A DNA stretch of 64,000 bases from Candidatus Levyibacteriota bacterium (GTDB lineage Bacteria; Patescibacteriota; Microgenomatia; Levybacterales; UBA12049): positions 36,954-100,953 of the forward strand of contig JACPLG010000005.1 in assembly GCA_016186625.1 (NCBI GenBank). The letters run 5' to 3'. Within the stretch, counting starts at the first letter, position 1. Each line of letters opens with the position of its first letter. This document shows positions 7,354 to 58,662 of the stretch, piece after piece. The translations under genes and the position numbers were made by a program. Under the pieces are notes generated by a model. It saw nothing but the letters and a program-made list of their open reading frames with translations. It ran no database searches and was not told the DNA's origin.

Positions 7354-8535
7354 GTGGTATTTTTTATGAAAGCAGTAATTATACTTCCAACTTATAACGA
7401 AAAAGGAAATGTTGAGCGTTTAATTACAATTCTTGAGGAAGAGATATTTCCAAAAATAAAGAATTATGAAATGTATATCTTAGTCGCAGATGACAATTCT
7501 CCAGACGGAACCGCAGATGAGGTGAGAAAACTAATGAAAAAATGGAAAAATATTGATTTAAATCTAGGTGAAAAACATGGACTTGGTGCAGCGTACGTAA
7601 GAGCAATGGACTGGGCAATTAAAGAAATGAATGCAGACATTGTTTTTGAGATGGATGCAGACTTGTCCCACGACCCGACAAAAATTCCACTTTTTCTGAA
7701 AAAGATAGATGAAGGATTTGATATGGTTATTGGGACAAGATATAGCGGAGGAGGATCTATTCCAAAGAATTGGGGAATCAGTAGAAAAATCCAGTCAGTT
7801 GTCGGAAATTTGGTTGTAAGATCAATTCTGATGAGATTCTGGGTTCATGACTGGACAGGAGGCTTCAGGGCCCTTAGGAAAGAAGTGTTTTTAAAAGAGA
7901 AAGATGAATTAACAGCTTTTAGAGGTTACACATTTCAGGTATCATTTTTACACAAAGCAATTCGTGACGGTTTTAAAGTAGCAGAAATCCCTTTCCATTT
8001 TTTAGATAGAACGCTTGGGAGATCAAAAATCGTTCCGCGGGAATATATTATTGACTTATTAAAATATGTCATAACTGCCAGATTTTGGGAACTAGTTCGC
8101 TCCCCTTTTTTAAAATACGCAATTACTGGTTTTATTGGGTATTTAATTAATGCCATCTCTCTTGAGATTTTTTCTGAATTTTTCAAACTTGCTCCATTCT
8201 TTGCGGCAGCGTTTTCTGCTGAGCTTTCAATCATTTGGAATTTTATAGTTAATAATTTCTGGGCATTTGGAAAATATAAAATTACAAGTCCTTGGAAAGT
8301 ACTTCTCAAATTCCCGCAATTTAATTTGGTTTCATTCGGGTCTCTTCTAATAATAGCAACAGTTGTATTTCTGGGAACATATATTTTCGGCAACACCACT
8401 TTTGTGCGGCAAATTTCTTTAATTATTGCAATAGGATTTTTTGTCATCCCATATAGCTACTCCATGTATAATATCTTTATATGGAAAAGATGGCACATTT
8501 CTTATCTTTCAAAACTCCAGGAAAAATTAGGTTAA
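7354..8535 (+). CDS. family-2 glycosyltransferase (Dpm1/polyprenyl-phosphate sugar synthase-like) fused to a C-terminal GtrA-like membrane domain
   Basis: ILPTYNE, DDNSPDGT and DADLSHDP (DxD) motifs, followed by a 4-TM tail (GtrA-like). The true start may be the internal ATG at 7366 (MKAVIIL). Confidence 0.8.
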   Translation: MVFFMKAVIILPTYNEKGNVERLITILEEEIFPKIKNYEMYILVADDNSPDGTADEVRKLMKKWKNIDLNLGEKHGLGAAYVRAMDWAIKEMNADIVFEMDADLSHDPTKIPLFLKKIDEGFDMVIGTRYSGGGSIPKNWGISRKIQSVVGNLVVRSILMRFWVHDWTGGFRALRKEVFLKEKDELTAFRGYTFQVSFLHKAIRDGFKVAEIPFHFLDRTLGRSKIVPREYIIDLLKYVITARFWELVRSPFLKYAITGFIGYLINAISLEIFSEFFKLAPFFAAAFSAELSIIWNFIVNNFWAFGKYKITSPWKVLLKFPQFNLVSFGSLLIIATVVFLGTYIFGNTTFVRQISLIIAIGFFVIPYSYSMYNIFIWKRWHISYLSKLQEKLG

Positions 8536-10160: not shown

Positions 10161-10313
10161 CAAACAATGGAAGAAGGGAAACCTAAAAGTAAAAGAAGCC
10201 TAAGGGTTCAAAATTATCCATTATGTAATAGTTTAATAGGCGATATGCCGGGAAGCCACGACGCTTATTGCCCCAACTGTGGTTTCAAAGACCCATGTTT
10301 TAAATATTTTACC

Positions 10314-10334
10314 TTCCCACATTCCATGTGGGAA
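10314..10334. repeat. conserved hairpin repeat TTCCCACAT-TCC-ATGTGGGAA (copy 1 of 4)
   Basis: 9-bp perfect stem with a 3-nt loop. The same motif recurs at 46995-47015, 52483-52503 and 53367-53399. A 26-nt flank is shared with copy 3. Confidence 0.7.
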
Positions 10335-10449
10335 CACGATTTAACATTCACGCAATTCCTGCTCGAGCAGAATTTTTGAGGTTTACTTCTGCAAGGCGTG
10401 GCCCTGGAGAACTTGTAGTCGCTACAAAGACCCTGCTGTGAGTAGCTGC

Positions 10450-46893: not shown

Positions 46894-46994
46894 GAACTAA
46901 TATAGTACCATCTAATTGCAACTGAATTTTTGTTAGATAGATACTCTGATATAATTGCCCCATTTTTTGGCTGAATAACCTGAGAAAATCTTGC

Positions 46995-47015
46995 TTCCCA
47001 CATTCCAAGTGGGAA
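46995..47015. repeat. conserved hairpin repeat, copy 2 (TTCCCAC-ATTCCAA-GTGGGAA)
   Basis: Same stem as copies 1, 3 and 4. Lies in the divergent intergenic region. Confidence 0.6.
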
Positions 47016-47044
47016 AGCAGAGTAGATGATTCATCAATGTATTC

Positions 47045-47080
47045 TAGCACAGTTTTCCGCTCGAGCGGAAAACTGTGCTA
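47045..47080. promoter_or_regulatory. 36-bp perfect palindrome TAGCACAGTTTTCCGCTC|GAGCGGAAAACTGTGCTA
   Basis: The 18-bp arms are exact reverse complements around a CTCGAG centre. Lies 80 bp upstream of the 47160 gene and ~150 bp upstream of the divergent KAS-III-like gene. Confidence 0.7.
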
Positions 47081-51785: not shown

Positions 51786-52466
51786 ATGTTCTCAAAAAAG
51801 CAGATTAATCTTCTAGTTTCAGCGATTATCATTTTGATATCAGCCGTTGCTATTGTACTCTCCGATAATTCTTCAAAGCTCTCGCCCTCTTTTAAAAATG
51901 AATCTATTTCTTCTACTCCGGAAAGTCTTTATGAGGAAGAAGTGCTCGGCCAATCATTACTTTCTTCAGGAGTACCGGTTTTGCCAACTGCTCCTGATAA
52001 GATTGCGGAGGAAGATTCGGACAACCAGGAAAGCGAGCAAGTGGATGAGGCAGGATACAGGGTTGTGAAGATTGTTGACGGAGATACCTTGGACGTTGAA
52101 ATTGACGGAAAAATTGAGCGTTTAAGACTTATCGGAATAGATACTCCCGAGACAGTAGACCCCCGAAAAAGCGTTAAGTGCTATGGACGTGAGGCTAGTA
52201 ACAAGGCAAAAGAGTTACTCGAGGGTCAGTTCGTTAGCTTGGAATCAGACGAAACACAAGGAGAGCGGGATAAATATAAAAGGCTTCTTCGTTATGTTTT
52301 CCTTGCGGATGGCACCAATTTTAATTTGTACATGATTGCCGAAGGTTACGCCCATGAATATACCTATGCCAACCCCTATAAATATCAAGTCGAGTTTAGG
52401 CAAGCAGAAATTGATGCCCGAGAAAATTCAAGGGGCCTTTGGAATCCACAAGTCTGTCCTAATTAA
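51786..52466 (+). CDS. thermonuclease (staphylococcal nuclease homologue), membrane-anchored/secreted
   Basis: VKIVDGDTLDVEIDGKIERLRLIGIDTPET and YVFLADGTNFNLYMIAEGYA SNase motifs. N-terminal TM. Confidence 0.8.
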   Translation: MFSKKQINLLVSAIIILISAVAIVLSDNSSKLSPSFKNESISSTPESLYEEEVLGQSLLSSGVPVLPTAPDKIAEEDSDNQESEQVDEAGYRVVKIVDGDTLDVEIDGKIERLRLIGIDTPETVDPRKSVKCYGREASNKAKELLEGQFVSLESDETQGERDKYKRLLRYVFLADGTNFNLYMIAEGYAHEYTYANPYKYQVEFRQAEIDARENSRGLWNPQVCPN

Positions 52467-52482
52467 AAATTTGAACTCTAGC

Positions 52483-52503
52483 TTCCCACATTCCATGTGG
52501 GAA
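52483..52503. repeat. conserved hairpin repeat, copy 3 (TTCCCACAT-TCC-ATGTGGGAA)
   Basis: Identical over 26 nt to copy 1, including the flanking GGGAACAC. Lies just after the thermonuclease stop. Confidence 0.7.
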
Positions 52504-52572
52504 CACAGATTGAAAAAGAGGTAGGCTTCGCCCACTTGTTGGGGAAATCTATAACTTGCTATAATTCCTCCT

Positions 52573-53366: not shown

Positions 53367-53399
53367 TTTGAGTTCCCACTTTCCATGTGGGAACTCAAA
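53367..53399. repeat. conserved hairpin repeat, copy 4, extended to a 13-bp stem (TTTGAGTTCCCAC-TTTCCAT-GTGGGAACTCAAA) between convergent genes
   Basis: Perfect 13-bp stem read directly. Overlaps the nth stop codon region. Confidence 0.7.
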
Positions 53400-58421: not shown

Positions 58422-58495
58422 GGCCCCATCGTCTAGTGGTTTAGGATATCTGGTTCTCATCCAGAAGATCAGGGGTTCGAATCCCCTTGGGGCTA
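58422..58495 (+). tRNA. tRNA-Glu (anticodon CUC)
   Basis: GGCCCCA-TC-GTC-TAGTGGTTTAG-GAT-A-TCTGG-TTCTCAT-CCAGA-AGATC-AGGGG-TTCGAAT-CCCCT-TGGGGCT-A, 74 nt. Close to E. coli tRNA-Glu. No encoded CCA. Confidence 0.75.
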
Positions 58496-58499
58496 CAGA

Positions 58500-58614
58500 G
58501 GCCAAGCGGGCAGGTCTAGTGGTTCAGGACATCGGGTTCCCCGCCAGCAACGCTTTGCGTAGCAATTTTCGGGCTGGTCATCCCGAAAATCACGGGTTCG
58601 ACTCCCGTTGGCGG
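58500..58614 (+). ncRNA. tRNA-like element of unresolved structure (canonical D-arm and T-arm/3' acceptor; ~35-40 extra nt in the anticodon region; no complementary 5' acceptor strand found)
   Basis: GTCTAGTGGTTCAGGAC duplicates the tRNA-Glu D-arm. ACGGG-TTCGACT-CCCGT-TGGCGGT-A is a canonical T-arm plus acceptor 3' strand. TCGGG...CCCGA could form an anticodon stem bracketing a 44-nt insert. Confidence 0.3.
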
Positions 58615-58662
58615 TACGCCTCGTCAAACTCTTCAGGGTGAGCTTCAGATTTAACTCAGCAC

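Follow-up and report, generated by a model that had tools for sequence, protein, structure and literature searches.

Four copies of a short hairpin, TTCCCAC-N-TTCCA-N-GTGGGAA, lie between the genes of a Candidatus Levyibacteriota bacterium (contig JACPLG010000005.1, positions 36,954 to 100,953), and the question they raise is what kind of element they represent. This stretch, hereafter the window, is 64 kb long with ~38% G+C, and the copy counts given for it refer to these 64 kb. We propose, with a probability of about 0.8, that the hairpins are repetitive extragenic palindromes (REPs), and that their partner, a Y1/HUH protein resembling the REP-associated tyrosine transposases (RAYT), is encoded once elsewhere in the same Levybacteria genome. 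What is established is a structured hairpin repeat with a polarity, physically tied to a Y1 gene of the RAYT fold and turning over at orthologous sites. Elements of this kind are known, and the present one belongs to an ultra-small bacterium of the Candidate Phyla Radiation (CPR), for which we found no report of them: our search for literature linking RAYT or REP doublets forming hairpins (REPINs) with Patescibacteria or the CPR returned nothing. Its unusual features are the lack of a GTAG foot, a hairpin conserved inside the transposase gene, and in-frame copies in housekeeping genes of related genomes.

We identified exactly four matches to the pattern TTCCCACNTTCCANGTGGGAA in the window (starting at 10314, 46995, 52483 and 53373; Table 1), all on the + strand and with no mismatch to the consensus. 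Since none was found in 100 dinucleotide-preserving shuffles of the window, the four-copy family described in an earlier, sequence-only reading of this DNA is real. With the loop left free (3-15 nt between TCCCAC and GTGGGA) the same four sites were retrieved, and allowing three mismatches added only the reverse strands of these sites. Folded as single-stranded DNA (ssDNA), the copies reach -8.0 to -13.6 kcal/mol (z of -3.4 to -7.4 relative to shuffles). Their core of 21-33 nt falls within the length typical of REPs, i.e., a stem-loop palindrome of 20-40 nt. The stem of 13 bp previously noted for copy 4 is indeed perfect, and the loop-closing position of copy 2 is an A/A mismatch. The identity between copies 1 and 3 extends over 25 nt (C, the 21-nt core, and CAC), one less than the 26 nt reported earlier. 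Past ~25 nt the flanks of the four copies are unrelated, which shows that the copies are not segmental duplications.

All four copies lie outside long open reading frames (ORFs). The proposed location at gene ends holds strictly for two of them. Copy 3 lies 16 nt past the stop codon of an SNase-family gene (51786-52466) and 69 nt ahead of the next gene. Copy 4 lies 14 nt past the stop of an Exo_endo_phos gene (+) that converges with an HhH-GPD gene (-), whose stop codon is covered by the right arm of the hairpin. On the other hand, copy 1 is in the midst of the 379 nt that separate a PMT_2 glycosyltransferase gene (+) from a convergent, uncharacterised gene (-), at 243 nt and 115 nt from their stops, and copy 2 is located where a FabH-like gene (-) and a PNPOx gene (+) diverge, in the spacer between their 5' ends. 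We read the 3' flanks of all four copies and found no T-run after any of them, as had been noticed from the start. A terminator scan of the window called none of the copies, and the terminator-like sites it did find were not above those of shuffles.

The hairpin is not restricted to the window. A scan of species-representative genomes gave exact matches to the core in at least 104 genome stretches, where we would expect ~4 by chance (our own estimate, for 19 fixed bases and ~1.2e12 positions). The matches are in Patescibacteria (Levybacteria, Daviesbacteria, Microgenomates), Pseudomonas, Thiotrichaceae and other Gammaproteobacteria, and also in Campylobacterota, Chloroflexota, Planctomycetes, Lentisphaerae and others. 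Among the matches listed, some genomes have at least 5-8 exact copies. Across 87 distinct instances the loop-closing pair covaries (GC 27, UA 16, CG 12, AU 10), as do two pairs outside the fixed core. The observed covariation score was reached by none of 500 shuffles, and the signal was lost when the partner columns were slid. Hence, the structure consists of a stem of 8-10 bp closed by a conserved 5-nt loop, TTCCA. The flanks are also conserved (5' yTCG and 3' yGCAkA), and since they are not palindromic the element has a polarity. The 3' flank of copy 2 (AGCAGAGTAGAT) is similar to the conserved 3' flank of the family. A chance or compositional artefact, or a local duplication without function, might have been suspected from the mere four copies of the window and the 25 bases shared by copies 1 and 3. 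The shuffles, the exact matches in at least 104 stretches of unrelated genomes and the unrelated flanks refute this idea, to which we give practically no weight.

A gene encoding a Y1 transposase (Y1_Tnp, PF01797) was present in 11 of the 104 loci chosen by the motif, among the matches listed. The hairpins in these loci (designated by L numbers, as are the other loci below) are placed after the stop of the gene (6-25 nt), at its start or within 33 nt of it, or on both sides. In the Patescibacteria loci L005, L044, L075, L077 and L102 there is a hairpin 6-25 nt past the transposase stop, and in most of them a further one is found ~22 nt ahead of the start. The Campylobacterota loci L009 and L042 encode a very different Y1 protein (~24% identical). 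Its gene has the same core on both sides, one copy inverted relative to the other (CTCG-hairpin-TGCATA and TATGCA-hairpin-CGAGA), as in a classical REPtron.

A search with the protein retrieved 4929 relatives (E <= 1e-10). Daviesbacteria, Levybacteria and Microgenomates supply most of them, and most are encoded on a single contig each; most of the protein clusters are also on about one contig. Three further loci were chosen independently, by protein identity only: L111, on a 1.1-Mb Daviesbacteria contig, L113 and L114. All three have one hairpin before the gene (often with the loop TTGACGA), one inside it (around residue 146) and one just past its stop. REPtrons are therefore found in relatives whether loci are chosen by motif (L005, L044, L075, L077, L102, L009 and L042) or by protein (L111, L113 and L114). 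The downstream hairpin of L077, L102 and L114 has exactly the 21-mer of window copies 1 and 3. In the three Daviesbacteria loci L111, L113 and L114 the RAYT gene lies between a gene for a class-Ib tRNA synthetase (tRNA-synt_1b) and the ATP synthase operon. Such a conserved neighbourhood is expected from a vertically inherited, domesticated gene, not from an insertion sequence (IS). We found no tnpB-like gene adjoining the transposase gene in the loci examined.

The protein matches the Pfam profile PF01797 with 40-46 bits (cut-off of 23). Its HuH motif, PNHFHLL, is present in 94 of the 120 closest homologues, and its tyrosine motif, YIHRN(P/S/A), is of the Y---NP kind; the two motifs read NHFH and YIHRNP. 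The Y---NP motif is the signature of class 2 TnpA-Y1, to which the REP-associated transposases belong (Quentin et al. 2018, PMC6006769). We modelled the protein of the relatives with AlphaFold, using 26 homologues (mean predicted local distance difference test, pLDDT, of 79; predicted template modelling score, pTM, of 0.79). The best Foldseek match of the model was 4ER8_A (E of 7.8e-5, target-normalised TM of 0.64, 14% identity over the structural alignment), followed by the transposases of IS608, ISDra2 and IS200. The structure 4ER8 is that of the Escherichia coli REP-associated tyrosine transposase with a bound REP hairpin. Judging from the model, the protein of the relatives is thus RAYT-like in its fold. 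Searches of the Protein Data Bank (PDB) were less informative: a single sequence gave no match, and a profile only a weak one, to the TnpA of ISDra2 (E of 0.1). The suggestion that these are hairpins recognised by a protein, with a transposase involved, fits well with a motif that is widespread, that flanks a Y1/HUH gene in relatives, and whose neighbouring protein has its best structural match in 4ER8.

The homologue of this protein in the genome of the window is very probably MBI2621608.1 (P0062 in our set), annotated as 'transposase [Candidatus Levybacteria bacterium]' and encoded on a contig of 238,547 bp. It is 70% identical to the Daviesbacteria protein and carries both NHFH and YIHRNP. 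Four proteins of the window match exactly entries in the range MBI2621320.1 to MBI2621367.1, from a 116,414-bp contig of a Candidatus Levybacteria metagenome-assembled genome, whose population is present in the groundwater runs SRR12113383-SRR12113430. The accession of the transposase is 241 numbers above those of the window proteins, in a genome of about a thousand genes, and on the basis of this proximity it is almost certainly part of the same assembly as the window. The RAYT- or IS200-like transposase that the hairpins had led one to expect has thus been located in relatives, where hairpins flank it, and very probably in the genome itself. The internal site of MBI2621608.1 encodes FPLSMCE, which corresponds to a broken stem.

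In the relatives, this internal site holds a hairpin with the REP stem, in frame with the RAYT gene and just after YIHRN, where it encodes FPLxxWE (five loci in Table 1). The residues encoded by the stem (FPL..WE) were kept in 71 of the 120 closest homologues, and those encoded by the loop vary freely. In the CPR lineage, three fixed places of the transposase gene carry a hairpin: ~22 nt ahead of the start, in frame behind the catalytic tyrosine motif, and directly past the stop. One may speculate that the protein acts through the REP to regulate or process its own gene. Other genes of relatives also contain hairpins in frame, namely those for alanine racemase, phosphoglycerate kinase, DNA polymerase III delta' and a PMT_2 glycosyltransferase, and an uncharacterised ORF of 295 aa. 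These copies add 7-11 residues to real proteins, e.g., the peptides SHIPGGN and SHLTSGN in DNA polymerase III delta'.

Further evidence comes from orthologous sites. A metagenome scan with the Exo_endo_phos protein, whose gene lies between copies 3 and 4, gave seven orthologous loci (63-85% protein identity) that share the gene order Nramp - SNase - Exo - HhH-GPD. The spacer of copy 3 has no hairpin in L117, L119 and L120, and only a decayed one (TTCCAC...GTGGAA) in L118 and L122. The site of copy 4 is filled in L120 and in L118 (where the loop is CTCCA), retains only a remnant of the left arm in L119 and L123, and is empty in L121. It is also filled in L117 (2068-2088, corresponding to 53373-53393 of the window), with an unchanged stem and a loop that is exactly reverse-complemented (ATGGAAA instead of TTTCCAT). 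Sites that are filled, empty, decayed or inverted in their loop reveal turnover, and gain, decay and inversion are the pattern of a mobile repeat, not that of a fixed regulatory site. The loop flips could result from inversion through the palindromic stem or from re-insertion. We also observed that the pair of hairpins flanking the RAYT gene is flipped between the syntenic loci L005 and L044.

How such a system might work can be proposed by analogy with the E. coli TnpA-REP and the TnpA of IS608. The RAYT-like protein would bind the hairpin on ssDNA, e.g., at the replication fork, and would read the non-palindromic foot as a guide for the cut. Cutting and rejoining beside the hairpin would then copy or move REPs, whose copies would build up mostly in the short spacers behind genes, where the genome tolerates them. 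The hairpins might in addition act in mRNA 3' ends, as stabilisers or attenuators, in a putative secondary role.

Several observations weigh against the REP/RAYT assignment. The canonical foot of REPs, 5' GT[AG]G, is absent: proteobacterial matches read GTATGCA or GTCTGCA on the reverse strand. The copies of the window are singletons, and form neither REPIN doublets (inverted REP pairs) nor arrays of bacterial interspersed mosaic elements (BIMEs); the initial description as REP/BIME-like palindromes is thus supported for its REP part and only weakly for its BIME part. There is no Y1_Tnp gene in the 64 kb of the window. The protein scores well below the cut-off of the NCBIfam equivalog NF047646 (REP_Tyr_transpos), with 45.5 and 35.4 bits when 80 are required; it is a distant subfamily, not an equivalog of the E. 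coli type. We know of no biochemical activity for this transposase subfamily. In Microgenomates loci, the hairpins on the two sides of the gene have the same (direct) orientation, like the ends of IS200/IS605 elements. Finally, sense orientation prevails in co-directional spacers (29 vs 15, for the exact matches listed and with crude ORF calls), and a sense bias just past stop codons could be caused by selection at the RNA level.

This last point raises the possibility that the hairpins are primarily RNA elements of mRNA 3' ends, selected independently of any transposase, which could be factor-dependent terminators, blocks to 3'-exonucleases or sites for RNA-binding proteins. In favour of this, copies 3 and 4 are 14-16 nt past stop codons, many exact matches are 2-30 nt past the stop of a gene in sense orientation, and the first outer pair is often G-T (28 of the 87 instances), which in RNA is a G-U wobble. 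Moreover, E. coli REPs are reported to be active in 3' untranslated regions, according to a preprint (bioRxiv 10.64898/2026.03.23.713779). We nevertheless find a primary RNA role unlikely. Copy 2 lies in a divergent promoter spacer, the hairpins of relatives are found in both orientations and in frame within coding genes, and the loop is exactly inverted at the orthologous site of L117. The missing U-tracts and the terminator scan led us to discard intrinsic terminators and, together with a core present in at least 104 stretches, agree with the earlier opinion that these are not ordinary rho-independent terminators. Rfam 15 gave no match at the hairpins, neither in the window (E up to 5) nor in five related loci (E up to 1), at gathering or E-value thresholds, so that we also discarded a known RNA family. 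An RNA role also leaves the tight and repeated flanking of the transposase gene unexplained.

That flanking could in turn be taken as the mark of an autonomous IS200/IS605-type element, with the hairpins as its leftover ends or as derivatives resembling miniature inverted-repeat transposable elements (palindrome-associated transposable elements, PATEs), and with no domesticated REP/RAYT system. REPtrons usually have hairpins in inverted orientation, and the direct orientation around the Microgenomates gene resembles that of the left and right IS608 ends. The protein belongs to the Y1 transposases, and the only solved structure found by the profile search was the TnpA of ISDra2, weakly. We consider this explanation very improbable, because IS200/IS605 elements have a multi-copy tnpA at variable sites, and here most protein clusters are on about one contig and the gene has the same neighbours in different Daviesbacteria. 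No tnpB-like gene adjoins it, the tyrosine motif is Y---NP (class 2, TnpA-REP) instead of the Y---Q of IS200, and the best match in fold is the structure of a RAYT, not that of IS608. What is dispersed are single hairpins, without the pairing of a left and a right end. We therefore retain REPs with a RAYT-like partner as the best description of the system.

The closest well-studied counterpart is the REP/BIME and RAYT system of E. coli (TnpA-REP/YafM, 4ER8). Both systems have short hairpin palindromes in spacers, mostly at gene 3' ends, with a non-palindromic foot beside the stem. In both, the partner Y1/HUH gene is flanked by the hairpins, and ours, too, is presumed to be in single copy. The foot differs, (G)TmTGyA instead of GTAG, and in the window copies it reads TCTGTG, TCTGCT, ATCGTG and TTTGAG on the reverse strand. 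The stem has only 8-10 bp, with the conserved 5-nt loop TTCCA; the copies of the window are single, without BIME arrays; the protein has ~215 aa and is below the NCBIfam cut-off; and the host has a small Patescibacteria genome and is not a proteobacterium. The IS200/IS605 elements (IS608, ISDra2) share with our system a Y1 transposase that recognises, or in our case would recognise, small hairpins on ssDNA and, in Microgenomates, directly oriented flanks, but they differ from it by tnpB, a multi-copy gene, variable neighbours, the Y---Q motif and paired hairpins.

An element of this type is already on record as a REP, as a single row. Quentin et al. 2018 (PMC6006769, Table S1) list the REP GTATGCA-TTCCCACGC-AAA-GCATGGGAA-CGAG for the ACL04004.1 REPtron of Desulfatibacillum alkenivorans, in one manually found row with no subclass and no description of a family across phyla. 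This REP ('GTATGCATTCCCACGCAAAGCATGGGAACGAG') shares with our family the stem, TTCCCAC/(G)TGGGAA, and the flanks: its GTATGCA...CGAG is the reverse complement of the CTCG...TGCATAC of proteobacterial and Campylobacterota matches. Its loop is GCAAAGC, whereas ours is N-TTCCA-N, and the flanks in the window have diverged (CTAGC...CACAGAT, etc.). We searched the literature for the core sequence and its variants and found no paper.

Two subclasses of the same classification resemble our proteins. With its motifs (NHLH, WQ, YIHQNP, SS) and ~178 aa, and with inverted flanking REPs, the Campylobacterota protein of L009 and L042 looks like subclass 2.6 (Bertels Group 5), an assignment based only on reading motifs. 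This subclass was reported mostly from Bacteroidetes and with REPs with 'atypical secondary structures' (PMC6006769), and the lineage of the window has another protein type, ~24% identical. The foot described here, which is not GT[AG]G, is comparable to the 'atypical' REPs of subclasses 2.6 and 3. The Microgenomates protein has 215-235 aa and motifs (NHFH, FQ, YIH(R/L)NP, SS) that fit the second listed variant of subclass 2.1 (Bertels Group 1), which it looks like on this basis, the membership being read from motifs and not from the authors' profiles. No REP-like sequences were reported near the genes of subclass 2.1 (PMC6006769), whereas here the gene is consistently flanked by hairpins. Subclass 2.4 also has a REP-like hairpin in frame within the transposase coding sequence, but the place of the one described here is fixed, directly behind the Y motif, and its peptide is FPLxxWE.

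A broader proposal is more tentative, and we put it forward as a possibility that we do not favour at present. The core and its asymmetric foot might form one REP superfamily, ancient or spread horizontally, served by at least two RAYT subfamilies (~24% identity) and extending over eight or more phyla, including the CPR. It would comprise a transposase gene that regulates or processes itself, the colonisation of housekeeping genes in frame, and REPs for a RAYT like those of subclass 2.1. If this were true, REPs would have to be attributed to a type of RAYT (subclass 2.1-like) that was believed to have none.

Nearly all work on REP/RAYT systems has dealt with Proteobacteria, and what benefit these systems bring to the host is debated. 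CPR genomes are small, with little spare DNA, which is why such a system in a CPR bacterium is informative: it suggests that REP-type repeats are maintained even where genomes have been strongly reduced. In principle, such a system is nothing new; its use lies in the core shared across phyla, the internal hairpin and the CPR host. With a 21-nt core, a polarity defined by the foot and a hairpin within the transposase gene, it offers a compact way of probing RAYT function. It also matters for the annotation of CPR genomes, where the hairpins yield spurious short ORFs (with the peptide FPHSMWE) and extra residues in the proteins of relatives.

Table 1. Positions of the hairpins and palindromes in the window and in related loci
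Feature	Locus	Position	Strand	Description
REP copy 1	window	10314..10334	+	TTCCCACA TTCCA TGTGGGAA; 9-bp stem as folded; -8.0 kcal/mol, z -5.2
REP copy 2	window	46992..47019 (core 46995-47015)	+	stem extended by TGC/GCA flanks; -8.2 kcal/mol, z -3.4
REP copy 3	window	52483..52503	+	flanks CTAGC...CACAGAT
REP copy 4	window	53367..53399 (core 53373-53393)	+	perfect 13-bp stem 53367-53379/53387-53399; -13.6 kcal/mol, z -7.4
Internal RAYT hairpin	L111	10439-10459		
Internal RAYT hairpin	L113	10439-10459		
Internal RAYT hairpin	L114	10475-10495		
Internal RAYT hairpin	L032	6482-6502		
Internal RAYT hairpin	L040	793-813		
In-frame gene copy	L022	~3364		
In-frame gene copy	L089	~2743		
In-frame gene copy	L008	~2441		with a second site
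In-frame gene copy	L055	~5808		
In-frame gene copy	L044	3910-3930		
Second palindrome	window	10354..10374	.	TTCCTGCTCGAGCAGAA; 20 nt 3' of copy 1; weak fold, z -0.55
Second palindrome	window	47045..47080	.	perfect 18-bp arms TAGCACAGTTTTCCGCTC/GAGCGGAAAACTGTGCTA; 30 nt 3' of copy 2; -18.6 kcal/mol, z -9.8

Other candidates were considered and rejected. The loop N-UUCCA-N might mimic the anticodon loop of tRNA-Gly(UCC), but by their covariation the two N are Watson-Crick partners, so that the stem has at least 8 bp and the loop only 5 nt. The copies are not in a regularly spaced array, as the repeats of a CRISPR would be. We saw no R'/R'' boxes of an integron attC on reading the flanks, for which no formal scan was made. 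A phage origin was discarded because the core hairpin had no exact match in 2.9 million viral contigs. The cumulative GC skew rises along the entire window (positive throughout), and we considered a replication-linked strand bias. Four copies on one strand are too few for this (two-sided p = 0.125), and the loop inversion at the orthologous site weakens such a reading further.

Composite arrangements of the hairpin were found in several loci. A full hairpin of L012 (around 2376) is enclosed by an extra TTCCCAC and an extra GTGGGAA, and an extra arm lies beside a full copy in L011 (around 3932) and in L005 (around 506). Such nested or half-duplicated REPs suggest insertion into or beside existing copies. 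In L037, L047, L059, L084 and L101 (Campylobacterota and others), a related second hairpin (ACTCCCACTCAGGAGAGTGGGAGCGAGA) follows the core by ~20 nt. It is an inverted partner of the core, and the two make up a REPIN-like doublet of ~75 nt closed by TCTCG...CGAGA. Composites of this doublet-like kind are present in Campylobacterota and proteobacterial loci.

Copies 1 and 2 each have a second palindrome on their 3' side (Table 1). The 8-mer GCTCGAGC occurs twice in the 64 kb, each time as the centre of a palindrome at 20-30 nt 3' of one of these copies, to whose hairpin it looks unrelated. We saw no palindrome like the one at 47045-47080 beside REPs in other AT-rich loci. Each of the two may be a companion module, a second class of repeats or an operator.

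The ORF that runs through copy 1 (10167-10379, +, 70 aa) has a CPNCG zinc-ribbon-like motif upstream of the hairpin and no Pfam match. It may be a real small gene with a 3' end altered by the REP, or it may be spurious. As claimed earlier, the hairpins do produce spurious short ORFs with the peptide FPHSMWE, possibly including this one. In the region 52431-52545, copy 3 has on one side the current SNase 3' end (...GLWNPQVCPN*) and on the other a decayed second copy of an SNase 3' end. The latter, at 52509-52545, resembles the ...GLWSPSTCSGNK* ends of L117 and L120, and it looks as if the end of the SNase gene had been replaced by a segment bearing the REP.

Two other observations concern RNA genes and leaders. 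In L114 (Daviesbacteria), near the RAYT gene, a match resembling a T-box leader (7679-7958, -; 82.3 bits for a gathering score of 93 bits, E of 2e-16) lies upstream of a gene without Pfam match and of prephenate dehydrogenase and tRNA-synt_1b genes. In the window, an Rfam tRNA match of 111 nt (58506-58616, +; 32.3 bits for a gathering score of 29 bits) directly follows the tRNA-Glu(CTC) at 58422-58496 and was not called by ARAGORN. This may be a tRNA that carries an insertion or intron, or else the decayed remains of one.

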